Positions 23,183 through 55,506 of a stretch of DNA of 64,000 bases are shown here, piece after piece. Position 1 is the first letter of the stretch. Each line of letters begins with the position of its first letter. The notes beneath the pieces are model-generated. The model worked only from the letters and a program-made list of their open reading frames with translations, was not told the DNA's origin and did not search any database. The stretch is from Candidatus Poseidoniales archaeon (GTDB lineage: Archaea; Thermoplasmatota; Poseidoniia; Poseidoniales; Poseidoniaceae): contig QQSI01000040.1 of NCBI GenBank assembly GCA_003602645.1, positions 4,152-68,151 on the forward strand, written 5' to 3'. The position numbers were made by a program, and so were the translations under genes.

Positions 23183-23258
23183 GGGCTCGTGGTCTAGGGG
23201 TTATGACGTCGCCTTGACATGGCGAAGATCGAGAGTTCAATTCTCTCCGAGCCCACCA
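23183..23258 (+). tRNA. tRNA-Val (anticodon GAC), CCA encoded
   Basis: GGGCTCG acceptor stem pairs with CGAGCCC; anticodon stem TCGCC/GGCGA with loop TTGACAT (GAC); T-stem GAGAG/CTCTC with TTCAATT loop; discriminator A then CCA; 76 nt. Confidence 0.9.
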
Positions 23259-43269: not shown

Positions 43270-44175
43270 TCACTGAGGTGAGGCTTCTTTGGAAGCCTCC
43301 TCTTTCTTATCGTCTTTCCCTGTGGTGGTTTCTTTGGTGGCATCCTTAGGTGAATCCTCTTGTGCGAGGGCTGCTTCCTTCTTTTCAGCACGCCTCTTAG
43401 CAGCTTTTTCTTGGCGCTTTTGGAAGGAGTCACCGAAGTTTGCCATGCTTTCAAGCCGTAGGGCGATGCCAGAGAGTTCCTCATCCTCTGCACGGACATA
43501 TTTGACAAGGTAGGCGCCAAACAACATGTCGTAGAGGCCTTGATTTTGGTCGCTGTTTTTCTTGAATCTGCCATCAATAATGCGGATTGAGAACAAGATG
43601 ATACCCAGGACAAGCAATCCGATGGCAACTGGGTTGGCTTTACCTGCCGTGTCGAAGAGGTTACCCATGTTGATAATGACCAATGATAATCCTACAAGCG
43701 CCATCAGTCCTACCGAATTGACAAGGAATCCATGCAATGGGTTAGGTTTGGCATCTGCTGATGTGATGTAGCGCGTTCTTGACATGAAATTTCCAAGTGT
43801 TCGACCGGTCATAATCGGGATAACAAATACATTTGTGATGATCATCAGGAGTGCTCCAATAGCGGGTATGGTAGGGGTCGAGCCCATGACTGAGAGGAAA
43901 ATGGCTCCAAAGAGGACACCGAAATTCCAGATGAAATTCATCAACCAGGCTAAAAATCTAGAGTTTTGTGTGGCAATTTCATACCCTTCAGGGAGTCCAG
44001 CAGTGCTTAATTTGGGTTTCTTAACACGTGGTGCACGAGGGGTTTTTTCAGCCTTTGCGGCCTTGACAGGTTTTGCGACAGCAGTGGCTTTTTTGGGTAT
44101 AGCTTTGGCCACTGCCTTTTTGGGCGCTTCCTTTGTTTCACTGCCTGCTGTGTTTGCCTTGTCTAGTAGTCCCAT
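43270..44175 (-). CDS. RDD-family membrane protein with Lys/Ala-rich N-terminal tail
   Basis: 3 TM segments, GRTLGNFMSRTRYI motif typical of RDD family, K/A/P-rich N-terminus; ATG 6 nt after upstream stop. Confidence 0.6.
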   Translation of the reverse strand: MGLLDKANTAGSETKEAPKKAVAKAIPKKATAVAKPVKAAKAEKTPRAPRVKKPKLSTAGLPEGYEIATQNSRFLAWLMNFIWNFGVLFGAIFLSVMGSTPTIPAIGALLMIITNVFVIPIMTGRTLGNFMSRTRYITSADAKPNPLHGFLVNSVGLMALVGLSLVIINMGNLFDTAGKANPVAIGLLVLGIILFSIRIIDGRFKKNSDQNQGLYDMLFGAYLVKYVRAEDEELSGIALRLESMANFGDSFQKRQEKAAKRRAEKKEAALAQEDSPKDATKETTTGKDDKKEEASKEASPQ

Positions 44176-44180
44176 TGTGG

Positions 44181-45173
44181 TCACTCACCCTTGTACTGTG
44201 CGCCAATTGCGCTGTAAATTTGGAAGTTCTCAGAAGCAACAAAGGCATCGATGTCGGCTTCGGCCATGTTGCCAAGTTGGCCGTCAACGATGGTAAAGAA
44301 GGCCGTCCTCATTTCGTCACTGGAGTTTTGAGGATCACTTCCGACGGCTTCGTAGATTGCAAAATCTTCACTGCCCACGAACGTGGTGACGACCTCTTCC
44401 GGCAAATTTGATCCAAGGAGATCATCCACGATTGCGACAAAAGTGACAAACATGTCATCAGTTTGCTCTGTTTCGTTGGATATTGGTTGTGCAGTGGTCA
44501 CGTCAGCGGTGTCCCCAGCAATCATGGCTTGAAGTGATTTACGTTCGGCCATTAATGATTCCAAAACTGGACGAAGTTCTGCAAGAACTTGAGCGTCCCC
44601 GGCAACCTTTGCTGCTTGATATTCAGGTTTCAATGAACGCAATTCATCTTCAATCATGGTTAACTGACTTTGGAGTTCATTTTCAGCAGTCTCTGATTCA
44701 AGGAGTTCGACGACTGGAGCATCTCGAACCTCTGATATTTTCCCTTCATGTTCTTGCTTGCGTAAAACGATGATGTCCCTGTCGAGTGCATGACCAAATC
44801 GGTCGGCATATCGGTCCAATAGTGAACCAGCGTCCGCAGAGGAAATTCGATCAATGTGCCCATAAATTTGTGGGAGTGGTTTATCCGATCGCTTGGCCCA
44901 CAGGTCGCCATATTTGTCAGACACTGGAGTTTTAGGTGTTGCAGCGAGACTGTCATTGTTCCAAACTGAAGCCTCTGCAGGCACTGGAAGGGGTGCGTCT
45001 GGAAGCGGAAGGCTTGGTTCAGCAGCCGGTGCGGGTGGCAATGGAAGGGGGGGGTTGTCCGGAGAGGCGCCTGGCGGTGCTGGCAGAGGTGGCATACCGG
45101 GCAATGGCGGCAATGGTAGACCTGGTGTTGGTGCGGCTGGAGCCTTGTTTTTCTTGCCTTTCCTCAGACCCAT
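44181..45173 (-). CDS. Hypothetical protein. Pro-rich N-terminus, central coiled coil and two C-terminal ~40-aa repeats
   Basis: PLPPLPGMPPLPAPP... region; heptad-like LQSQLTMIEDELRSLKPEY; repeats MFVTFVAIVDDLLGSNLPEEVVTTFVGSEDFAIYEAVG / MRTAFFTIVDGQLGNMAEADIDAFVASENFQIYSAIG. Confidence 0.5.
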   Translation of the reverse strand: MGLRKGKKNKAPAAPTPGLPLPPLPGMPPLPAPPGASPDNPPLPLPPAPAAEPSLPLPDAPLPVPAEASVWNNDSLAATPKTPVSDKYGDLWAKRSDKPLPQIYGHIDRISSADAGSLLDRYADRFGHALDRDIIVLRKQEHEGKISEVRDAPVVELLESETAENELQSQLTMIEDELRSLKPEYQAAKVAGDAQVLAELRPVLESLMAERKSLQAMIAGDTADVTTAQPISNETEQTDDMFVTFVAIVDDLLGSNLPEEVVTTFVGSEDFAIYEAVGSDPQNSSDEMRTAFFTIVDGQLGNMAEADIDAFVASENFQIYSAIGAQYKGE

Positions 45174-45269
45174 GTGGTTCACCCCTAAACCTGTGGATGG
45201 TAGCGCGGTCTTGAACCTTACCTCAAGAAGTGGTGACGAAAAGCGTAGTTGTCAAACGAATTATTTTCG

Positions 45270-46472
45270 CTATGCGATGACTTTTGCCCAGCCTTTTAAC
45301 ACCAAAAATGTGGCGCCAGCTTCGTGAATTTCAAATTGGTCCCCAGCGGCTTTGGCATACATTGTATCGCCAAATTGTGCGATTGAATCATCCACCGTCA
45401 TTTCCACTGTTAGCTTGTCTTGAGTACTGAGTGCAAGTGCCTCGTGTAGAGGGGAATAAGGGTTTGAACCATCAGGATCCAACCTTGACAGTGGGAATTC
45501 ACACACCTTCATGCCCGACTTGCCATGAAGGGATGTAGGCCATCGAATTTGGCGTCGAACGTCGATGGTAACAACTTCATCTGTTTCTCCTGCAGAACCT
45601 AAGACCACAGAAGTATCGGTTTTAAGCAAATCGAGAAAGAGGGCTTGATGTTTGTCGAGGACTCCAAAATTTCCATCCCTCAGACGAGAAGCACGGTCAG
45701 GATGATTGACAATAGATGCGAGCTGCTCGATGGATGTAGGGCCCTTTGTTGATTTTCGACCTTCGCGTTGAGATTGTGACTTTAACCCTTCATGAAGTGT
45801 TTTTATCACCTTTTTATGGCCCTCTTCTTTTTCTGCAATGCCTTGCAGTTTTTCGATCATGCCACCCATTCCGTCGCGGATCCTGCGCGTCCACCCCTCG
45901 CTTGAAAGATCATGATATCGAGCAAGTCCTCCTTTGACATCAACACCTTCACCTCTGATGTAAGACACCATTTCTCTACGAGCTTCAGAATCGAGGTGAA
46001 AGAGGGATGGGTCCCGATAGTGCAGGTGGAACCCTCTGTGACCAGAAAAGGTTACTTGCAAATATTTTTCTTGAAATCCAAATTCTGGTTCGAGAAAATC
46101 ATTCCATAACGACCATGCTTGTTCGTGGATCACCTCAAGCATACCCGGGAAATCCTTGTCGGTCACCCCTGGCAAGTGATCTCCATCTAAGTCGAAAATT
46201 AAGTCTGCGCCCAACCAATTTTTATCGGCCATTTTCATTTCAAATGGTCGCTCCCAATATGCGGTCGAATAGAAACAGGAATGCATGGCTCGGTCTGTCA
46301 AGAATTGACGAACACCTTGCATATCACTGAATCCCTTGTGGCGAATTGGAGGGGCTCCCCCGAATGGAATGAACATCCATTCCCTGGTTTTCAAGCGAGG
46401 AGGCGTCCAAAATTCTGAGCTCCGATAATACGCACCAAAACGATGTGCGAACCTTGCCCAACCAGTTGCCAA
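45270..46472 (-). CDS. priS: DNA primase small (catalytic) subunit PriS
   Basis: REWMFIPFGGAPPIRHKGF and ADLIFDLDGDH (DxD catalytic motif) match archaeo-eukaryotic primase small subunit; apparent TTG start. Confidence 0.8.
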   Translation of the reverse strand: MATGWARFAHRFGAYYRSSEFWTPPRLKTREWMFIPFGGAPPIRHKGFSDMQGVRQFLTDRAMHSCFYSTAYWERPFEMKMADKNWLGADLIFDLDGDHLPGVTDKDFPGMLEVIHEQAWSLWNDFLEPEFGFQEKYLQVTFSGHRGFHLHYRDPSLFHLDSEARREMVSYIRGEGVDVKGGLARYHDLSSEGWTRRIRDGMGGMIEKLQGIAEKEEGHKKVIKTLHEGLKSQSQREGRKSTKGPTSIEQLASIVNHPDRASRLRDGNFGVLDKHQALFLDLLKTDTSVVLGSAGETDEVVTIDVRRQIRWPTSLHGKSGMKVCEFPLSRLDPDGSNPYSPLHEALALSTQDKLTVEMTVDDSIAQFGDTMYAKAAGDQFEIHEAGATFLVLKGWAKVIA

Positions 46473-46525: not shown

Positions 46526-46735
46526 TTATTCGTTGGTCATCCAGAAGCGTTCTTCTGCTTCACCGACCGCGGTCGCGGTGTCAGCACCGGTTGTTTCGAC
46601 GTAGTGCTCCCAACACATGTAGAACTTACCAACGGCCATAGCGTTGCCAAAAGTGAGGCGAATGCCGCAGGACTCGCAACGAGGGCCAATTTCACCGTTT
46701 GGTGCTTGGGCGAGAGTGATGTGTTCGTGTGGCAT
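46526..46735 (-). CDS. Hypothetical small Cys/His-containing protein
   Basis: 69 aa from ATG: MPHEHITLAQAPNGEIGPRCESCGIRL...YMCWEHY; possible zinc-binding; weak support. Confidence 0.25.
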   Translation of the reverse strand: MPHEHITLAQAPNGEIGPRCESCGIRLTFGNAMAVGKFYMCWEHYVETTGADTATAVGEAEERFWMTNE

Positions 46736-46794: not shown

Positions 46795-47277
46795 TTACCA
46801 ACTGGTCTCTTCCCATTGGGGTGATTTACACCATTGGAGCAAATCGAGAGCGACCTCGCAAGATTCTGCAACTTCTGGATTTGGATCGTTGAGGTGGGCT
46901 TTGAGCACCGGCAAGACGCTCAGATCACCAATCGCTCCCATTGCTTCGGCCGCTTCGTGTCGGACCATGACATGCTCCTTATCGTCGCTGAGCCTTTCAA
47001 TGAGAGTAGGGAGGGCGGTTGGGTTTTGCATTTGACCAAGGACATAGGCGAGTTCATGACGCAGCAAAGCACTGCTTGAAAAAAATGCACTACACAATGC
47101 TAGGCAAGCTTCGTCCGACCCGTCGTTGCGAAGGGAGAACACTGTTCGCATTCGCTGAAACATTGGTGCGTTTTCATCCATTAAAAGAGCAGACCACTCT
47201 TTGAGTGTACCCACATTCTGTGGAGGGGCGGGGTCAACCGAACCATATTGGCTCACTCCAGGTGCCCGTTCAGTCAT
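46795..47277 (-). CDS. Deoxyhypusine-hydroxylase-like HEAT-repeat protein (half-size, two His-Glu motifs)
   Basis: FQRMRTVFSLRNDG...SSALLRHELAYVLGQMQ...EHVMVRHEAAEAMGAIGD...NPEVAESCEVALD closely follows the DOHH HEAT-repeat/HE-motif pattern; ~160 aa = one lobe; ATG at 47277 (track start GTG). Confidence 0.7.
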   Translation of the reverse strand: MTERAPGVSQYGSVDPAPPQNVGTLKEWSALLMDENAPMFQRMRTVFSLRNDGSDEACLALCSAFFSSSALLRHELAYVLGQMQNPTALPTLIERLSDDKEHVMVRHEAAEAMGAIGDLSVLPVLKAHLNDPNPEVAESCEVALDLLQWCKSPQWEETSW

Positions 47278-47289
47278 ACACCTCACCAC

Positions 47290-48177
47290 TCAGGACTCAT
47301 CGGAGCCAATAAATTGCATGTCTCCGGGCTTGAACGCTGGATCAATGAGTCCGATTTCTTGGCCTTCTGTGATAAATTGCCGGATGGAAGCGCGTCCTTC
47401 TTTCTTGTAATCGATGGTGCGGTCATTGACGTACATGCTCACAAATTCCTTATTGGTGTCATCATCAATGCCTCTGCCCCACTTTTTGGCAAATTCAAGT
47501 GCTTCAGCAGGTGATTTCAGAGCATACTCAATGCTCATTTTGGTGTACTTAGTGATGTCTTCCATTGCTTGTGCTCCAAGATCTCGACGGACGACATTGC
47601 CTCCAAGCGGCATAGGCCAACCGCCGGTTCGTTCGTTCCACCAAACACCAAGATCAATATGCACGTGAAGGTCGTGATCAACATAGGTCAGTTGGCCTTC
47701 GTGAATGATGAGACCACTCAAGTAGGTTCCATCGAGGATGCGTGGGATGATTTCATCGAAGGGAACAACGGCAACTTCGCAGTCACCCCATGCCAGACGC
47801 AGCCCCATGTAGGCACTTGTTTTGAGGCCAGGGACGGCGATGATGTTGCTTCGGACATCTGATTCGCTTGCGCCCTGCATTGAAACAACCATTGGACCAT
47901 ACCCCTCACCCATCGAGGCACCACAATTCATCAAAGCATAATTCTCGGAAATTTCTGGGAATGCGTGGATGGAGACTGCTGAAACTTCAAGGTCGCAATT
48001 CATTGCGCGGTGGTTGAGTGTTTCGATGTCTTGCAGTTCGTGTACGAAGTGGTAGCCAGGAGTTGGAAAGGCACCAGTGGTCATTGCGTGGAACATAAAG
48101 GCGTCATCTGGGTCCGGAGAGTGTCCGATTCGAACAATTTTGTTGCCGTCTTCATCAAGGGGTAATTGAGCCACCAT
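47290..48177 (-). CDS. mqnD: MqnA/MqnD-family protein (likely 1,4-dihydroxy-6-naphthoate synthase, futalosine pathway)
   Basis: RIGHSPDPDDAFMFHAM...ELQDIETLNHRAMNCDLEVSAVSIHAF follows MqnD (PF02621) consensus; ATG at 48177. Confidence 0.7.
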   Translation of the reverse strand: MVAQLPLDEDGNKIVRIGHSPDPDDAFMFHAMTTGAFPTPGYHFVHELQDIETLNHRAMNCDLEVSAVSIHAFPEISENYALMNCGASMGEGYGPMVVSMQGASESDVRSNIIAVPGLKTSAYMGLRLAWGDCEVAVVPFDEIIPRILDGTYLSGLIIHEGQLTYVDHDLHVHIDLGVWWNERTGGWPMPLGGNVVRRDLGAQAMEDITKYTKMSIEYALKSPAEALEFAKKWGRGIDDDTNKEFVSMYVNDRTIDYKKEGRASIRQFITEGQEIGLIDPAFKPGDMQFIGSDES

Positions 48178-48312
48178 GATGCCTCGACTGGCGCGCCCTT
48201 GATGAACCAACCGCTAATTTTTCCTGATTTCTTCTTTTCCTGCATTGGTGATGCATTCACCGATTTGTTTTCAGTGTTGATTGATTCATCTGGGTCCAAG
48301 GGGAGTCGTGGT

Positions 48313-50514
48313 TTGGGCGTCAAGGCAACTGGTTGCATTGCATTTATGCTGTTGGTGATGCTCTCCACGCCAGTGGCCTCGAGCGCGTCAACCATTTCGT
48401 TCACAGGCACCACGACCGTTGAAACCACCGACGGATCCTCGGCCTTAGCTATTGATTCGGACATGAACTACCTCGCAAGCGGTTACGATGACCACATGGC
48501 CATCATGTGGTTGGATAATCTATCGCTGATTGATATCATTGAAGTGGATCGACCCGTGGAATCACTGGAGTTTTCACCGGATGGCTCTCTCTTGGCTATT
48601 GCCATATCAGGGTCGGAAACAAAGGAGGACACCATTCAATTATTTGATGTCGAATCCATGACTCTGAGCCAAAAGCAACAATCGGCTAACGCTCGCCCAG
48701 TGGACATTGCCTGGTCGCCAGATGGGTTGCTACTTGCGGTTCCAAACGCGAATAATGGTATTGATTTAATCCGTATTTCTGATATGGAAATAGAGCGGAG
48801 TTTGACTGGCGAACACAATACAGACGTGACTTGTATTGGATTCACAAGCAACGGTGGGCATGTTATCAGCGGTGATGAATCGGGGCGAATGGTGATGTGG
48901 AACGTCGATGGTACTCCGACAGCAAAAAAATGGGAGTTTGGAAATGAACTCAAAACATGTTCTTTTGACCCAACCGACACACGCATCGCATCGCTTACGG
49001 TCGACGGTGCATTGAACACGCTTTCTTTTTCCGGTGGTGATTTACAAAGCGCTCAATTTACCTCAGGAGGTGGCTTGAGTTGGTCGTATGAAGGGACCTA
49101 CATACATTTGACAGAAAATGGCGATGCTCCACGATTGCTGACATTGGATGCCTCCACATTTGAACAAGTGGAATCGACCTACATGGCTCACCAAGTGTTG
49201 GATATTGCCACGATCGAAAATCAATACGGTTTGGTTCAAGAATTCTATGCAGCAACCAACACCCTCCATTTGGCGAGGTATGGTAGCCATGCTGTCCCCG
49301 AAGGAATGGGGGTTGCTGGAGCAGACCTCGATGGTGATGGCATACCGGATTCACTCGACGATGATGATGACGGTGATGCGATCTTTGATCAATGGGATAC
49401 GTATTGCGGTGAGGTTGAAACAGATTGTGCACGCTCCCCCCATGAAGACCACATTCGTTCGGTTTCGATTCAATTGAACGCCACACATATGACGATTAAT
49501 GACAGGATCAAATTGGACATCGTCCTATCCTCTTCAATCAGAAATATGTCGAGAATTTCTATTATTGAGGATGCTCAGCTCAGTGGGAGCGAAACCGAAT
49601 TGTTTGCCCAATCCGTTTGTGCTAACCATGATGAGAGCAGAATCCTTGAACAATGGAAAGATACACTGATGCTTTCAGAAGGCCAATTGGAAGGTGGAAT
49701 AGTAACCTGTGCCGTCAGCGAAGGCATGACGCTCAGAGCACAAAATGATTTCAAAACTCACATCGGTGTTGAATACACGATTTCGTTCAACCTTTCCTCT
49801 GCACCGATTTTCCCGTTCACAGTTGCATTCGAAGAGCAACCTATCGCCACTGATGCCTCATTATCCCATCTTGCAGAAATGCATCCTATTCATGTGACGC
49901 TTTCTGCAAAGGGAGCGAATGATGTCGAATTGTCTCCATGGTGGACCACAGAATCTCCTTTGGAACTCACTTTGGAGGAACGCGTGGTCAAAGAACCAAC
50001 CTTGACACAGAAAGGAGTGGATTTATTCGCGAATTATCCAATTCTTTTTGTCTTCGTTCTTGCCTTCCTTGCTGGAGGCATCGTGCTCGTATTGAGGACA
50101 AAAAACACAATGGGTATGGATCTCAACATCTTTGACGAAGAGGATGATGAGCCGAGTCGCGATGAAGACGAGGATGAATCAAGCACCTCAATCGAAGAGG
50201 AAGCTTCACTTGAAGTCCCTCTTGCCGAGCCGGAACAAGCAAAACCCGTCGAATCAAAAACGAATGTAAGGGACACAACGACCGACCATCCAGTTCAGAC
50301 CAAAAAACGCAGGAAAGTGAGCCAACGCACCTCCAGAGAGGGCCCGATTACAACAGTGAAGAGAAAGCGCTTGGATGGTGGAGAAGAACCTCCTGTTCAG
50401 AAAAGAGCAACCAGCAAAAAGCGAATTGTCAAACCCAACACGTCGACAAAGCGGAAGACAAGAAGGGTCGTAACTCAATCCGACAAAGAAGAAGACACTT
50501 CACCAGGCGAATGA
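48313..50514 (+). CDS. Membrane-anchored extracellular WD40/beta-propeller protein with basic C-terminal tail
   Basis: Signal-like KATGCIAFMLLVMLSTPVASSAS, multiple WD-like repeats (e.g. SPDGSLLAIA, SPDGLLLAVP, GHVISGDESGRMVMWN), C-terminal TM ILFVFVLAFLAGGIVLVL then D/E then K/R-rich tail; start uncertain (TTG 48313 or ATG 48346) because upstream alternatives overlap divergent mqnD. Confidence 0.7.
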   Translation: MGVKATGCIAFMLLVMLSTPVASSASTISFTGTTTVETTDGSSALAIDSDMNYLASGYDDHMAIMWLDNLSLIDIIEVDRPVESLEFSPDGSLLAIAISGSETKEDTIQLFDVESMTLSQKQQSANARPVDIAWSPDGLLLAVPNANNGIDLIRISDMEIERSLTGEHNTDVTCIGFTSNGGHVISGDESGRMVMWNVDGTPTAKKWEFGNELKTCSFDPTDTRIASLTVDGALNTLSFSGGDLQSAQFTSGGGLSWSYEGTYIHLTENGDAPRLLTLDASTFEQVESTYMAHQVLDIATIENQYGLVQEFYAATNTLHLARYGSHAVPEGMGVAGADLDGDGIPDSLDDDDDGDAIFDQWDTYCGEVETDCARSPHEDHIRSVSIQLNATHMTINDRIKLDIVLSSSIRNMSRISIIEDAQLSGSETELFAQSVCANHDESRILEQWKDTLMLSEGQLEGGIVTCAVSEGMTLRAQNDFKTHIGVEYTISFNLSSAPIFPFTVAFEEQPIATDASLSHLAEMHPIHVTLSAKGANDVELSPWWTTESPLELTLEERVVKEPTLTQKGVDLFANYPILFVFVLAFLAGGIVLVLRTKNTMGMDLNIFDEEDDEPSRDEDEDESSTSIEEEASLEVPLAEPEQAKPVESKTNVRDTTTDHPVQTKKRRKVSQRTSREGPITTVKRKRLDGGEEPPVQKRATSKKRIVKPNTSTKRKTRRVVTQSDKEEDTSPGE

Positions 50515-51306
50515 TGAGCCTTCTGTGAGATCGCAAGCATCGACCAAGAACTGTTCTAGCCCTTGTATGTGTTCTGGGTCCAACCGATTGAAAACTTCAC
50601 CAAAGTATCGATCCAATCGATCGTATTTGAGGTCTGATTTCGACATTGACCACTCGATAACTTCCTTCCTTGTTTTTGGGTCGGATTCAAAATGTGAAAG
50701 GCGATGAAGCAAAGCTTCCTGTGCGGCTTGCACATCCTCTATTGGGGTGTCTCTTCTGGCTGCAAAAACTCCGAAAACCATTGGTTTTTGCGTTCGATTG
50801 AGCCATGCTTGTCCAAGATCGAGTTGAACTCGTTCTGGTTGTTTCTTGGCTTCTTCCAAGGCACGGTCTCCAATGAGAAGGGCACCATCGCATTCGGAGA
50901 GCATGGTGTCCAAATCTGGGCCCATCAACTGTGTTTTTGGTTCCAAACGCTCTTGTTTTAGAATGTACTTCAGTAGAGCAACAGACGTCATCGAATCTGT
51001 GGGTAATGCGATGCTTTGCATTTTTGCCAACGGCAGATCACCGAACAGCAAAACGCTACCAACTTCCCCTTTGCTGCAGATCCCTATTTCTGGAACCAGA
51101 ACAAGTTTGTCGGCATGTCGGGCGTAATCTGCTGCTGGAATGGGGGCAAGGACACAATCCTTTCTCAGGAGGTGTCCGGTGAGCCATGAAGGGGGAGCGG
51201 GTAGAACTTCCCATTCATCATCGAGGCCGTAAAAAAGTGGGTCGCAATTTAGGAAAGCAACGCGGCCGATGATGCGCTTCCACCGAGGGGTTTGAGCCAC
51301 TTGCAT
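50500..51306 (-). CDS. mqnA: Chorismate dehydratase MqnA-family protein (futalosine pathway)
   Basis: RVAFLNCDPLFYGL...VLAPIPAADYA and later LLIGDRALE match MqnA consensus (ig-x-YlN-x-Pl). Confidence 0.7.
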   Translation of the reverse strand: MQVAQTPRWKRIIGRVAFLNCDPLFYGLDDEWEVLPAPPSWLTGHLLRKDCVLAPIPAADYARHADKLVLVPEIGICSKGEVGSVLLFGDLPLAKMQSIALPTDSMTSVALLKYILKQERLEPKTQLMGPDLDTMLSECDGALLIGDRALEEAKKQPERVQLDLGQAWLNRTQKPMVFGVFAARRDTPIEDVQAAQEALLHRLSHFESDPKTRKEVIEWSMSKSDLKYDRLDRYFGEVFNRLDPEHIQGLEQFLVDACDLTEGSSFAW

Positions 51307-51314
51307 CCGTCCAT

Positions 51315-52529
51315 CTACTCCTGTATAACTTGCAGTCTTTTTCGGCGCTTTGGCTCAGGCGCAACATAGATTTCAAATCGCTCATACGTCGTGTTTCTTT
51401 GAATTGGAACACACCCCGCATCTTTGATTAAGCGAGACAACTGAAATCGATCATGGTCCAACGGTGTTGTCGAACCTGCCAAATGCATGATTGATTCTTT
51501 TTGAACGGTCCCGTCAATATCATCAGCGCCAAATTGGAGGGCAAGTTCAGCGAGTTCATCACCAATGTTCATTCTGTAAGCTTTGATGTGGGGAATTGAA
51601 TGGAGCATAAGTCGAGATACTGCTATGGTTCTTAGGATTTCACTCCCTGTCGCAAGTTGCGCTTCAGGAAGGCGAGTGTCATCTGGAAGGAAGGGATAGG
51701 GCACAAAGCATTGAAATCCGCCGGTTTCTGAGGCAAGTTCGCGCAATGAAATCATGTGCTCCACTCGTTGTTGGAGTGTTTCAATGGTCCCAAAGAGCAT
51801 GGTGCAATTGGTTGGAAGCCCGATTTCGTGGGCAGATCTGTGGATGTCGAGGTATTCTTGGGAACTTTCTTTTCCGTTGCAGATAATGGCTCTCACATCA
51901 TCGTCGAGTATTTCCGCGCCCCCTCCAGGCAAAGACCCTAGGCCGGCGTCCTTCATTCGTTGGAGTGTCTCGGTGTACGAAAGGTTCGAAAGTTGGGAAA
52001 TATGTTTGATTTCAACAGCCGTCAATGCCTTGATCGTGATGTGAGGGAACTGTGCTTTTGTGGCACGGAAAAGTTGTTCATAATGTTCAATACCCCAATC
52101 TGGATGAAGGCCTCCTACTGAATGAACCTCATCCACAAATGGAGCATACTGGGCGAGATCTTCGAGGTAAGCGTCGATTTCCATAGCGTACGCATCCTGT
52201 GCCTTTTTGCTTCTTCGGAAAGCGCAGAATTTGCAGGCTAATACGCAGACATTGGTTTGGTTCACGTGGACATTGCTGTTGAAGAATGCCTTGTCATCAA
52301 AGCGCGCTGTCCGTACCTCATGCGCTAACCGCCCAACCTCACTGAGGTTTGGGTGATTGTAGAGGGTGAGACCGTCTTCCAATGAGAGGGATTCACCGCG
52401 AATCAATTTGTCTACCAAGGGTGAGAGAGGTTTGCTCCATTGGGAACTTTGTAGAAGTGAATCTGTCAGGCGTTGTTGCCAATCTTGGTTTGAACCAGCG
52501 TCAAACCGCGATGATGTCCATCCTGACAT
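51315..52529 (-). CDS. Radical-SAM enzyme of the MqnC/MqnE family (aminofutalosine synthase or cyclic dehypoxanthine-futalosine synthase)
   Basis: NSNVHVNQTNVCVLACKFCAF CxxxCxxC-type cluster motif and CofH/MqnE-like overall similarity; ATG at 52529. Confidence 0.8.
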   Translation of the reverse strand: MSGWTSSRFDAGSNQDWQQRLTDSLLQSSQWSKPLSPLVDKLIRGESLSLEDGLTLYNHPNLSEVGRLAHEVRTARFDDKAFFNSNVHVNQTNVCVLACKFCAFRRSKKAQDAYAMEIDAYLEDLAQYAPFVDEVHSVGGLHPDWGIEHYEQLFRATKAQFPHITIKALTAVEIKHISQLSNLSYTETLQRMKDAGLGSLPGGGAEILDDDVRAIICNGKESSQEYLDIHRSAHEIGLPTNCTMLFGTIETLQQRVEHMISLRELASETGGFQCFVPYPFLPDDTRLPEAQLATGSEILRTIAVSRLMLHSIPHIKAYRMNIGDELAELALQFGADDIDGTVQKESIMHLAGSTTPLDHDRFQLSRLIKDAGCVPIQRNTTYERFEIYVAPEPKRRKRLQVIQE

Positions 52530-52584
52530 ACATACCCCTATCACGATGCGTTCTTGAAGATGTGGATGAATCCATAGCGTAACA

Positions 52585-55506
52585 TCAACGAGAACCCGGT
52601 GTGAAGAAATTCGAATTGACGATGAATTTTCTGAACTCGTCAATCACGAAAACAGAGCCTGAGACGACAAAAATAATCGCCCAATCTGTTGCTGATAAGA
52701 CCGTTGTCGACATCAAGTCACCCACGTGTAAACTGGTGAGTGGTATCCTATGTTCTGCAAGTTGAACAAAGAACATCAATAATCCGAGTGAGAATAAAAA
52801 GGCGTAATTAATCCACTTGTTTGAAAACAAGCCGAGCTTGAACGCACTTTCTCGATTGCTTCGGCAATTCATCACGTTGAACAGTTGATAGACAATAAAC
52901 ACTGAGAACGTCATGGTTTGAGCATGTTGGAACAATTCCTCATTGTTTGTTTCAGAAGCTTGTATTGCAGCAAGTTGTTCTTGAGTGGCCTCGTCTCCCA
53001 TTCGAATACCAAGTTCACATTGGGCGACATCAAAGGGAGCTTCAGCTTCAGTTTGGAGGGGGTGGATGTCACATGTACCAACTCCGCCACCTGCAAGGAA
53101 GAAGACGATGAGCGTCCCAGTGACCATCACAGCACCAAGATAGAAGATCAGTGTGATGTCCCTGAAATTAGGCATGCCTTCATTGACCGGACGCGGTGGT
53201 TGGTTCATGACATCACCATGGTTTTTCTCAACACCTAAGGCAACGGCAGGTGGACCATCCATCAGAATGTTGATGACGAGAATTTGTGTTGCTGTCAAAG
53301 GTAAATTCCAACCAAACAAAAAGGTGGAAATAATGATCAAGGCAACAGCTGCGACGTTGGTAGAGACCTGGTAGCGTACGAAATTTCGAATGTTTTGGTA
53401 GATTTTTCGTCCTTCTTCAACGGCATGAACAATGTTGGCGAAGTTATCATCTTGAAGCACCATGTCGGCAGCATCCTTGGCTACATCTGTACCAGCAATG
53501 CCCATTGCGATGCCGATGTTAGCTCGTGATAAGGCGGGGGCGTCATTGACCCCATCACCCGTCATGGCAACAATTTCACCTTGATCCTGTAGGGAAGAGA
53601 CGATGCGCATCTTCTGTTCTGGTGTGACCCTAGAAAAGATGGAAGCCTGACCGGATGCTTCGCTCAATTGTTGGTCGTCATAATCCGCCAATGCATTGCC
53701 GTTCACAGGAGGTATGCCACCTTCGGTGATGTTCAATTCACGGCCGATGGCTTCCGCAGTGTATTGTTGATCACCAGTGATCATTTTCACCCGGATTCCT
53801 GCGCGCTGACACACTTCAATGGCGTCTTTGACTTCCGCTCTAGGCGGGTCCATGATACCAACAAGGCCGAGGAAAATGAAACTTGATTCAACACTGTCGA
53901 TGTCCTCGATGTCTTCATCATCATCAAGGCGACGGGCGCAGAGGGCAATCACGCGCATGGCTTGGCCTGCCATGTCTTTGTTAGCAATTGAGGCCAGTTC
54001 AAAGTCAGTTTCCTCGATCGGAACAATTTCCCCATCCTTGATTTTCCATTTCACCAGAGAAACATATCCACCAGCTCCGCCTTTCGAAAAGACCCAGCGT
54101 TCGCCTTCATAATCGTGGATAACTGACATTCGCTTCCGATTGGTATCGAAAAAGAATTCATGGAGCCGCGAATGTCGTTGAGCGAATTTCTTCACATCCC
54201 CATTGATTTTCCACCCAAGAACTGCGCATGCTGAGTCTGTTGGATCGCCAAGTGCCTGCCATTGTCCATCAACTTTAGAGATTTGAGAATTGTGACATAG
54301 ACTCAAGCACGCAGCAGAAAGGCGGAAAGCAAGATCGCTTTGATATCCTGAAAGTTCTTCGCCAGTGACAATTTTTCCGTTATACGAAAGTTCACCCTTT
54401 GGTTTGAAACCTTCTCCGGAGATAGTGAATGTGCCATCCGTGGTGGTGAGTTGGCGTGCTGTCATCTGATTCTTTGTGAGTGTGCCAGTTTTGTCAGAGC
54501 AAATGACAGTTGTGGAGCCAAGCGTTTCAACAGCCTTCATTCGTCGAATGATTGCTTTGTGTTTAGCCATATTACGCATACCAAGGGCAAGCGTAATCAC
54601 AAGAATAATTGGCAATCCTTCTGGAACAATAGCCACGAAAATCGCGATGGCTACAATAAATTGTTCAACCGCAACCTCTCGCAAATCCGCTGTCGGGTCA
54701 CCATAAGCAATGATCATCTTGATGGCTACCATGAGTACCGCAACAACAAGCGCTACAATTCCAAGGAATTTGCCCAAGGATTCAAGTTTGTGCTCAAGGG
54801 GGGTTTTCGGTGACTCGGAGCCCACGATATCGCTTGCAATCCGTCCAAGTTCAGTGTTCATTCCTATGTTGACCACAATGCCAACAGCACGTCCAGTGGC
54901 TACACTGGTGCCCATGTAGGCCATGTTATTTCTGTCAGCGAGCAAAGCTTCGCTAGCAATTGGCGCGGTTGTTTTCTTAATGCTGTCAGATTCACCTGTC
55001 AGCGATGACTCATCAATTTTGCATTGATAGGATTCAACCACTCGTACATCCGCTGGCACATTGATGCCTTCCTCGAGTTTGACCACATCCCCGGGAACCA
55101 GGAGGGGGGTTGGCACCTCTTGTTCGACACCATCACGAACAACAATACAGCTTGATACGGCCATTTGTTTGAGTGAATCCATCGCCTGTTCCGCCTGACC
55201 TTCTTGCCAAAATCCGAAAACGGCATTTGCAGTGAGGACTGAAAAAATGAAAATTGCGTCTCCAGGTTGGTCTGGGTGAATGGAAAGGGCAACGAGTGCA
55301 GCACCAATGAGAAGGTAATTGAGTGGATCGTTATATTGGGAGAGAAAACGCAACCAGGCAGGGGTTTTCTCAGGTTCTTGGAGTTTGTTTTCACCATATT
55401 TGGCGCGTCGAACTTCAACCTCGGAAGCACTCAACCCTTCAGGCTGGGTCTCGAGCTTGAGATATGTGTCTTCAGATGTCACATCGTGCCATTGTTGTGT
55501 TGCCAT
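52585..55506 (-). CDS. P-type cation-transporting ATPase (type II, Ca2+-ATPase-like)
   Basis: ICSDKTGTLT phosphorylation motif, TGES-type actuator region, MITGDQ and TGDGVNDAPAL hinge motifs, 10 TM; ATG at 55506. Confidence 0.9.
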   Translation of the reverse strand: MATQQWHDVTSEDTYLKLETQPEGLSASEVEVRRAKYGENKLQEPEKTPAWLRFLSQYNDPLNYLLIGAALVALSIHPDQPGDAIFIFSVLTANAVFGFWQEGQAEQAMDSLKQMAVSSCIVVRDGVEQEVPTPLLVPGDVVKLEEGINVPADVRVVESYQCKIDESSLTGESDSIKKTTAPIASEALLADRNNMAYMGTSVATGRAVGIVVNIGMNTELGRIASDIVGSESPKTPLEHKLESLGKFLGIVALVVAVLMVAIKMIIAYGDPTADLREVAVEQFIVAIAIFVAIVPEGLPIILVITLALGMRNMAKHKAIIRRMKAVETLGSTTVICSDKTGTLTKNQMTARQLTTTDGTFTISGEGFKPKGELSYNGKIVTGEELSGYQSDLAFRLSAACLSLCHNSQISKVDGQWQALGDPTDSACAVLGWKINGDVKKFAQRHSRLHEFFFDTNRKRMSVIHDYEGERWVFSKGGAGGYVSLVKWKIKDGEIVPIEETDFELASIANKDMAGQAMRVIALCARRLDDDEDIEDIDSVESSFIFLGLVGIMDPPRAEVKDAIEVCQRAGIRVKMITGDQQYTAEAIGRELNITEGGIPPVNGNALADYDDQQLSEASGQASIFSRVTPEQKMRIVSSLQDQGEIVAMTGDGVNDAPALSRANIGIAMGIAGTDVAKDAADMVLQDDNFANIVHAVEEGRKIYQNIRNFVRYQVSTNVAAVALIIISTFLFGWNLPLTATQILVINILMDGPPAVALGVEKNHGDVMNQPPRPVNEGMPNFRDITLIFYLGAVMVTGTLIVFFLAGGGVGTCDIHPLQTEAEAPFDVAQCELGIRMGDEATQEQLAAIQASETNNEELFQHAQTMTFSVFIVYQLFNVMNCRSNRESAFKLGLFSNKWINYAFLFSLGLLMFFVQLAEHRIPLTSLHVGDLMSTTVLSATDWAIIFVVSGSVFVIDEFRKFIVNSNFFTPGSR

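Follow-up and report, generated by a model that had tools for sequence, protein, structure and literature searches.

How hypusine is made in some archaea, and what the source of the eukaryotic enzyme was, are the questions raised by the locus described here. Homologues of deoxyhypusine synthase (DHS) occurred in all archaeal genomes then sequenced and hypusine has been measured in Crenarchaeota (PMC5178350), but no archaeal orthologue of deoxyhypusine hydroxylase (DOHH) is known (PMC5178350, PMC6105217), and both the archaeal route to hypusine and the origin of the eukaryotic enzyme are therefore regarded as open questions. Later reviews of the hypusine pathway name no archaeal hydroxylase. 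In this study, a 64,000-nt stretch of DNA from a Candidatus Poseidoniales archaeon (GCA_003602645.1, contig QQSI01000040.1, positions 4,152 to 68,151, hereafter the window) was analysed, with the focus on one gene of the minus strand (46795..47277) that encodes a half-size DOHH homologue of 160 aa plus stop codon, comprising a single lobe of four HEAT hairpins and here termed half-DOHH. An initial interpretation made without database searches (the sequence-only reading) had proposed a single-lobe DOHH that could homodimerise, and had noted the lack of a recognised archaeal DOHH, which the two cited papers indeed state. That reading held wherever it could be checked by computation. The 160-aa protein is a specific homologue of DOHH, distinct from generic HEAT proteins. 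We propose, with a probability of roughly 60%, that it serves aerobic Marine Group II (MGII) archaea as a single-lobe deoxyhypusine hydroxylase, active as a homodimer on aIF5A.

The open reading frame (ORF) runs from an ATG at 47277 to a stop codon at 46795-46797. An in-frame GTG at 47289 provides an alternative start that would add 4 residues (164 aa); the 160-aa form is the likely product, because the orthologues begin at the ATG position and a Shine-Dalgarno-like GGTGAGGTG sits in the spacer in front of it. This spacer, GTGGTGAGGTGT (47278..47289, minus strand), covers the 12 nt between the stop of the upstream gene mqnD, which ends at 47290, and the half-DOHH ATG, the same distance as had been read initially. 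The motifs singled out in the sequence-only reading were all recovered in the translation: RHELAYVLGQ, which contains H74-E75; RHEAAEAMGAIG, which contains H107-E108; MFQRMRTVFSLRN; and VAESCEVALD, as part of EVAESCEVALD. The base composition of the gene matches that of the surrounding DNA, and the ratio of nonsynonymous to synonymous substitution rates (dN/dS) between close orthologues is 0.02-0.06; half-DOHH is under purifying selection.

The first issue is whether the resemblance to DOHH exceeds that expected of any HEAT-repeat protein. In a phmmer search of all PDB sequences, human DOHH (4d4z) was the best match (E 8e-70), and the query aligned separately to the human N-lobe (108.8 bits) and C-lobe (128.2 bits), whereas artificial many-repeat HEAT proteins reached only about E 1e-33 or weaker in the same search. 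Core identity to human DOHH was 48% for the N-lobe and 51% for the C-lobe, compared with 42% between the two human lobes. The protein might alternatively be a non-catalytic scaffold of the HEAT/PBS-lyase type, its likeness to DOHH reflecting the repeat consensus only, and some annotation results point that way: the Pfam scan gave only HEAT_2 (PF13646, 77.6 bits, cutoff 27.7), HEAT_PBS (PF03130, 48.4 bits, cutoff 20.9) and HEAT, the NCBI family name is 'HEAT repeat domain-containing protein', and the NCBIfam scan produced weak matches to NblB and CpcE. The Pfam families matched are all generic HEAT or Armadillo families, and HEAT_2 and HEAT_PBS denote a repeat class and no functional family; no DOHH-specific family matched in the Pfam or NCBIfam scans, which do not discriminate here. 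No NCBIfam model scored above its cutoff, and the values for NblB (21.4 bits vs 300) and CpcE (19.6 bits vs 330), about 20 bits against cutoffs of 300-330, speak against the scaffold. The similarity to DOHH, moreover, extends over the whole lobe at 48-51% identity and includes non-repeat features, namely a linker motif and the ESCEVALD helix.

When 1.84 billion cluster representatives were scanned exhaustively with HMMER, 441 proteins were returned at E<1e-30. Approximately 120 of the best 150 representatives were proteins of about 300 aa that matched the query in two stretches, with identities of roughly 40-52%, and the remaining top representatives were giant multi-repeat HEAT proteins plus one MGII representative. 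The few two-lobe representatives with a source label were eukaryotic (EukProt, Caenorhabditis) or labelled deoxyhypusine monooxygenase. The ranking of representatives places two-lobe proteins above single-lobe ones, and other half-size families could sit below rank 150. The fold gave the same picture. An AlphaFold (AF2) model built from 30 orthologues had a predicted local distance difference test score (pLDDT) of 94 and showed four helical hairpins, and its first Foldseek match in the PDB was again human DOHH 4d4z, with a template modelling score (TM) of 0.88, a root-mean-square deviation (rmsd) of 1.2-1.3 Å and 47-48% identity. The next matches were artificial HEAT (alphaRep) proteins at E 1e-5, five orders of magnitude weaker. 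A search of a viral structure library yielded a best match of only E 0.2, and a viral vector for the gene is accordingly not indicated.

The residues that bind iron and substrate in the human enzyme could be traced in the archaeal protein. The diiron centre of human DOHH is held by H56, H89, E90, H207, H240 and E241, and the deoxyhypusine side chain is bound by E57, E90, E208, E241 and G214 (PMC9117371). The dyad His74-Glu75 (CAT GAA, 47053..47058, minus strand) aligns with human H56-E57 and H207-E208, and the dyad His107-Glu108 (CAC GAA, 46954..46959, minus strand) with H89-E90 and H240-E241; a spacing of 33 residues separates the dyads here and in each human lobe. Gly81 of the HELAYVLGQ helix (47035..47037, minus strand) aligns with human Gly214 and lies at H+7, as G214 does from H207. 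H74, E75, G81, H107 and E108 are invariant in 30/30 orthologues, a set that reaches down to 64% identity. H74, H107 and E108 are thus the predicted iron ligands, and E75 and G81 the predicted substrate binders; E75 corresponds to human E57/E208, which are substrate-binding and not iron-binding. The two His-Glu dyads that had been noted as those of one DOHH lobe therefore map onto the human ligands.

The conserved core extends this agreement beyond the metal site. Thirty-five core positions carry the same conserved residue in both eukaryotic lobes, and 34 of these are retained in the archaeal family; the eukaryotic lobes are conserved differently at just 3 positions, in each case conservatively (L/F, S/T, V/L), and judged from these counts the eukaryotic lobes are therefore nearly interchangeable. 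The DOHH match, the invariant ligands, the fold and the shared positions together effectively refute a mere scaffold, which we regard as extremely improbable. The sequence-only reading had named generic HEAT hits with unconserved dyads as the outcome that would speak against it, and had suggested a profile search with alignment to the DOHH lobes; Pfam was generic only, yet both human lobes align, the closest specific relatives are DOHHs and the dyads are conserved in all 30 orthologues.

The second issue is how a single lobe could form the active site. One polypeptide has one lobe with two His-Glu motifs and does not reach the architecture of DOHH, which has eight HEAT hairpins in two symmetric lobes with four such motifs. 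A lobe offers two His and one Glu, enough for one iron, and in the human enzyme two such ligand sets form one diiron centre (PMC9117371). Two copies of the archaeal protein probably pair to build a two-iron active site. This was modelled as a single chain of two query copies in tandem, with an alignment consisting of the tandem sequence as first row and 51 eukaryotic two-lobe proteins; the model had a pLDDT of 91.5 and a predicted TM-score (pTM) of 0.90. Superposed on full-length 4d4z it reached TM 0.92 (target-normalised) with an rmsd of 1.9 Å over 285 columns, a geometry that is inherited from the eukaryotic two-lobe alignment and shows compatibility rather than independent evidence of a homodimer. 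Two archaeal lobes are thus compatible in the model with the DOHH architecture, and a homodimer could form the diiron site. Had the His-Glu motifs been unable to approach each other, the initial proposal would have been in difficulty; in the tandem model they take up the arrangement of human DOHH.

A heterodimer is another way of assembling two lobes: DOHH activity could depend on a partner lobe supplied by another half-size gene in the genome, a more divergent paralogue. The eukaryotic enzyme does use two non-identical lobes, and a paralogue below about 50% identity would have escaped both our genome scan, which relied on the family-specific motifs AYVLGQMQ and MVRHEAAE, and the protein searches, which covered the best matches. 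We nevertheless consider a heterodimer improbable. No second half-DOHH copy was found within the 64-kb window, and a subgroup of relatives with 57% identity is orthologous, because it occupies the same mqnD locus. Furthermore, the archaeal lobe is consensus-like for the profiles of both eukaryotic lobes and specialised to neither, which is expected if one sequence serves both roles. The double copy found in one metagenome-assembled genome (MAG) likewise does not help the heterodimer, as it belongs to a mixed bin. This MAG, DAIUCF01 (isolate CTOTU8138), carries two copies of the mqnD–half-DOHH–Zn-ribbon–PriS block (loci L059 and L073) whose proteins are 65% identical; the blocks share the same syntenic context without nucleotide similarity, and the bin is therefore mixed. 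The candidate paralogue pair was rejected on this basis as coming from two Poseidoniales genomes.

The homodimeric hydroxylase can be described as follows. Each 160-residue subunit would form one four-hairpin HEAT lobe, in which His74, His107 and Glu108 would bind one iron, and the side chain of the substrate would be held at its amino end by Glu75 and Gly81. Two subunits would pair head-to-head, like the eukaryotic N- and C-lobes, and create a two-iron centre at their interface. With O2 bound at this centre, the enzyme would hydroxylate the deoxyhypusine side chain of aIF5A at carbon 2, converting the deoxyhypusine supplied by DHS to hypusine. Half-DOHH would be translated from an operon with mqnD. 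As to the pathway context, MAGs of MGII/Poseidoniales contain a DHS homologue, 'speY', next to agmatinase and arginine decarboxylase in a speDA–speB–speY cluster (PMC10407285), and MGII inhabit oxygenated surface water rich in reactive oxygen species (PMC10783094).

The third issue is the genomic setting, which is not that of a translation gene. The gene directly upstream, mqnD (1,4-dihydroxy-6-naphthoate synthase of the futalosine pathway; 47290..48210, minus strand), was assigned by PF02621 (E 7e-61) and by solved structures, namely AF1704 (1zbm, E 4.5e-65) and T. thermophilus TTHA1568 (2czl/3a3u, E 3.4e-46); the TTHA1568 structures are deposited as 'Menaquinone biosynthetic enzyme', which we take to be MqnD. 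The early identification of the upstream gene as mqnD agrees with these matches, the other PF02621 gene of the window matching MqnA. Directly downstream of half-DOHH lies a 69-aa Cys-rich zinc-ribbon-like gene (46526..46735, minus strand), and two genes downstream PriS, the archaeal DNA primase small subunit (45270..46472, minus strand; PF01896 and NCBIfam PriS models). The order mqnD, half-DOHH, zinc-ribbon-like gene and PriS was found in every testable GTDB locus, with mqnD adjacent upstream in 74/74 and the zinc-ribbon-like gene (<=300 nt) and PriS downstream in 72/72. In relatives the gap between mqnD and half-DOHH is 2 nt or a 4-nt overlap. In the divergent lineage of 57% identity (loci L088 and L089, 7141-8480), the PriS, zinc-ribbon, mqnA and radical-SAM genes have changed side and strand. 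The mqnD–half-DOHH pair is intact in this rearranged lineage, with a 2-nt gap. The 12-nt spacer with its Shine-Dalgarno-like GGTGAGGTG implies co-transcription and translational coupling, as judged from the sequence, and mqnD is the probable operon partner of half-DOHH.

This persistent pairing hints at co-expression or a functional link with the menaquinone gene; it may persist through operon inertia, the genome being compact, or reflect a functional tie to menaquinone synthesis. A diiron HEAT protein recruited from a DOHH-like ancestor to another substrate, in the futalosine/menaquinone pathway (e.g. a naphthoquinone intermediate) or among other small molecules or proteins, would account for mqnD standing directly upstream in 74/74 loci, for the retention of the pair where PriS, the zinc-ribbon gene, mqnA and the radical-SAM gene moved, for the co-expression implied by the spacer, and for the fact that DHS and aIF5A were not seen nearby in the window or the fetched loci. 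Against such a change of substrate, identity to the eukaryotic DOHH lobes (44-47%) is as high as that among those lobes, which argues for an unchanged function; the residues that serve the substrate only, E75 (E57/E208) and G81 (G214), are invariant; and compact archaeal genomes often co-transcribe unrelated genes. To our knowledge, the futalosine pathway needs no O2-dependent hydroxylase. We therefore judge the other-substrate explanation unlikely, while giving it more credence than the heterodimer.

Several observations nonetheless weigh against a homodimeric DOHH. Cultured Euryarchaeota, including Thermoplasmatales, carry mostly deoxyhypusine only (PMC5178350). DHS and aIF5A were not found in the window and 87 loci (1.02 Mb) by tblastn with unverified human DHS and eIF5A sequences as queries. 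Half-DOHH is linked to mqnD and not to translation or polyamine genes, and the pairing survives rearrangement. With respect to the dimer, the tandem geometry is inherited as described, AlphaFold was probably trained on 4d4z (released 2015), and a divergent second half-size paralogue may exist elsewhere in the genome.

Half-DOHH is spread across Marine Group II and was seen only in Poseidoniales. At least 1082 homologues, counted as 90%-identity clusters, were found at E<=1e-5, of which the best 120 listed are single-lobe proteins of 157-177 aa; where a close homologue is named, its source is a MAG of Candidatus Poseidoniaceae, Poseidonia sp. or 'Euryarchaeota archaeon'. Together with the archaeal PriS, these names identify the window as DNA of a Marine Group II archaeon. 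When each GTDB species was represented by one genome, a scan gave 388 loci with a relative, and the best 80 of these all bear MGII-type titles (Poseidoniales, Poseidoniaceae, Poseidonia and the older Euryarchaeota/Methanobacteriota archaeon); the scan used motifs specific to the family and, with the best 80 of the 388 loci listed, does not bear on distant prokaryotic relatives. The 2.06-Mb MG-II chromosome CM001443.1 is among the carriers. The suggestion that half-DOHH is the missing archaeal enzyme consequently stands in part: a DOHH homologue does exist in Poseidoniales, but it cannot be that enzyme for Sulfolobus and the other Crenarchaeota with measured hypusine, in which the gene was not seen. 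Occurrence in Poseidoniales only means that half-DOHH is no general solution to the archaeal hypusine puzzle, and hypusine in Crenarchaeota such as Sulfolobus is left unexplained.

The family is partly visible in existing annotation. The automated JGI/IMG annotation based on KEGG Orthology (KO) already names many of the homologues 'deoxyhypusine monooxygenase', and NCBI names the same proteins 'HEAT repeat domain-containing protein'. A description of half-DOHH was not found in the literature on DOHH or hypusine in Marine Group II, Poseidoniales, Thermoplasmatota and Asgard archaea, of which coverage was incomplete. The automated DOHH label is thus already known, and the half-size protein of Poseidoniales was not found described in a paper.

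The final issue is how the archaeal lobe relates to the two eukaryotic ones. For this comparison, 106 two-lobe proteins were split into N- and C-lobes and analysed together with 21 archaeal sequences over a core corresponding to query residues 31-148. Mean core identity was 47.0% between archaeal lobes and C-lobes, 43.7% between archaeal lobes and N-lobes, and 38.4% between N- and C-lobes (39.1% within the same protein). The two-lobe set was picked by similarity to the query, and the archaeal identities may be slightly inflated; the same order (C > N > N–C) holds in each tertile of the hit list and for human DOHH, a control not selected by rank, and these controls argue that the closeness of the archaeal lobe to both eukaryotic lobes is real. 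Profile scores were consistent with this. The N-lobe profile gave 144 bits for N-lobes, 126 for C-lobes and 152 for archaeal lobes, and the C-lobe profile 158 bits for C-lobes, 118 for N-lobes and 155 for archaeal lobes. The archaeal lobe looks like the common consensus of both eukaryotic lobes, because both profiles score it about as highly as their own members, whereas the two lobes cross-score much lower. Signature columns are a mosaic, with S139, V142, F40, V79 and M104 shared with C-lobes and L72, M83, A88, P90, A115, G117 and E135 with N-lobes. The best neighbour-joining (NJ) tree separates cleanly into three clades and places the archaeal one inside neither lobe; NJ bootstraps under full and reduced taxon sampling were weak (archaeal nesting in C-lobes 7-15%, in the more heterogeneous N-lobes 20-46%) and left the archaeal position unsettled, and profile cross-scores and signature columns were used instead.

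One segment complicates this picture. The N-terminal SQYGSVDPAPP (residues 9-19; 47221..47253, minus strand) is homologous to the eukaryotic inter-lobe linker and aligns with human 'YLSVDPAPP'. Among the 30 orthologues, no change occurs at S9, G12, S13 or D15-P18, and Q10, V14 and P19 are almost unchanged. Of 106 eukaryotic two-lobe proteins, 73 have the SVDPAPP motif in the linker and none has it at the N-terminus, and the linker D and P are 97-98% conserved in eukaryotes. As far as the alignment indicates, this homology weighs against a simple 'ancestral half'.

Two origins can be envisaged. The MGII protein may be a living pre-duplication homodimeric DOHH, the eukaryotic enzyme having arisen by tandem duplication and fusion of an archaeal single-lobe gene of this kind, in which the SVDPAPP segment became the linker; we put this forward only as a tentative possibility. 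The idea of an ancestral form, raised at the outset, agrees with the consensus-like lobe but is not proven, and the linker motif at the archaeal N-terminus counts against it. The other origin, which we likewise hold to be possible but doubtful, is that the linker and C-lobe of a eukaryotic two-lobe DOHH were transferred to the MGII ancestor and then truncated. A transfer would explain why SVDPAPP otherwise occurs only in the eukaryotic inter-lobe linker and never at eukaryotic N-termini, as well as the small excess in similarity to C-lobes (47.0%) over N-lobes (43.7%). Carriers among other archaea are not known, and trans-domain exchange of polyamine genes between MGII and stramenopiles is documented, the SpeDA clade showing transfer that involved stramenopile algae (PMC10407285). 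However, on the N-lobe profile the archaeal lobe (152 bits) outscores the N-lobes (144) and, by a wide margin, the C-lobes (126), and it lies nearer to both lobes than these lie to each other in every tertile and for human DOHH. It shares the N-specific states listed above besides C-specific ones. The best NJ tree does not place it within the C-lobes, and such nesting was seen in just 7-15% of bootstraps. The native base composition led us to reject recent horizontal transfer, and any transfer must therefore have been ancient. The comparison of lobes most likely places the separation of the archaeal lineage at or before the lobe duplication that made the two-lobe eukaryotic enzyme, a duplication that predates the eukaryotic radiation, and recent truncation of a modern C-lobe is disfavoured. 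The archaeal lobe may be a relic of the unduplicated gene or a linker-plus-C half that was transferred early and kept its consensus character.

These results show that one of the archaeal groups most abundant in surface seawater has a clear DOHH homologue, for which NCBI gives only the name 'HEAT repeat domain-containing protein', and the half-DOHH family bears on both hypusine synthesis in some archaea and the source of eukaryotic DOHH. Three propositions become testable: a eukaryotic-type hydroxylation step in an archaeon; a diiron HEAT oxygenase in which both 160-residue subunits are identical and which would offer a minimal symmetric system for the unusually stable peroxo-diiron intermediate; and the derivation of the two-lobe eukaryotic enzyme from duplication of such a half. 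If the pre-duplication origin is true, Poseidoniales would form true hypusine by means of a minimal diiron oxygenase of 160 residues, archaea could no longer be said to lack DOHH, and the enzyme would be older than the last eukaryotic common ancestor.

The remaining features of the window were recorded as follows. The second PF02621 gene, mqnA (50500-51306, minus strand), matches chorismate dehydratase, MqnA, and adjoins a radical-SAM gene with a CofH/MqnC C-terminal region (together 50500-52643, minus strand); mqnA, the radical-SAM gene and mqnD form a split futalosine-pathway cluster. NCBIfam gave no match at all for the MqnD protein of the window and may miss the archaeal MqnD of this group. 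Between mqnA and mqnD, on the opposite strand (48166-50514, plus strand), lies a gene for a 782-aa WD40 beta-propeller protein with a charged, low-complexity C-terminal half that includes a hydrophobic stretch; this arrangement, which interrupts the mqn cluster, was also present in the five distinct related contigs compared, drawn from two groups of relatives. Large WD40 proteins are uncommon in archaea. The ORF listing gave the zinc-ribbon-like gene as 96 aa, with an upstream ATG overlapping half-DOHH by 22 nt, and relatives support the 69-aa start; their gene is called at 69 aa with a weak YrzR_Zn_ribbon match, and the window copy had no Pfam match. Past PriS are two conserved genes for which Pfam gave little signal or none (44181-45182 and 43270-44184, both minus strand), one with a Pro/Ala-rich N-terminus, an acidic C-terminal half and an internal repeat (…FV.IVD..LG…), the other Lys/Ala-rich at its N-terminus, with hydrophobic segments and an RDD match below threshold; similar-sized genes without Pfam matches occupy the same position in related contigs. 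A single tRNA gene (23183-23255, plus strand) was the sole Rfam match in the window.

Half-DOHH was compared with three known systems. By analogy with the obligate-dimer ancestors of duplicated pseudo-symmetric enzymes, it is a single domain whose homodimer would equal the fused relative and whose sequence lies near the consensus of the two halves; this is an analogy only, and the half may be ancestral or may have arisen by secondary fission. With CpcE/CpcF, NblB and E. coli YibA it shares PF13646 and PF03130 repeats and a short prokaryotic HEAT solenoid; it differs from these PBS-lyase HEAT proteins in that their structural matches are weaker (5n3u, E 7e-4 at 22% identity; 1oyz, E 8e-3), and we know of no E/F-type bilin lyase or related HEAT protein with a paired His-Glu metal site. 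Eukaryotic DOHH (Lia1/nero, EC 1.14.99.29, 4D4Z) differs in having two lobes in about 300 aa, whereas the archaeal protein has one lobe in 160 aa and its diiron site would need two subunits; the archaeal gene stands in a probable operon with a menaquinone gene, and its sequence falls between those of N- and C-lobes without belonging to either. The likeness to eukaryotic DOHH covers the HEAT-hairpin lobe fold at an rmsd of 1.2-1.3 Å, the pair of His-Glu dyads in each lobe with their 33-residue spacing, the Glu and Gly of substrate binding, the SVDPAPP linker motif and the ESCEVALD helix; the tandem model, its geometry taken over from the eukaryotic alignment, reproduces the two-lobe architecture at TM 0.92.

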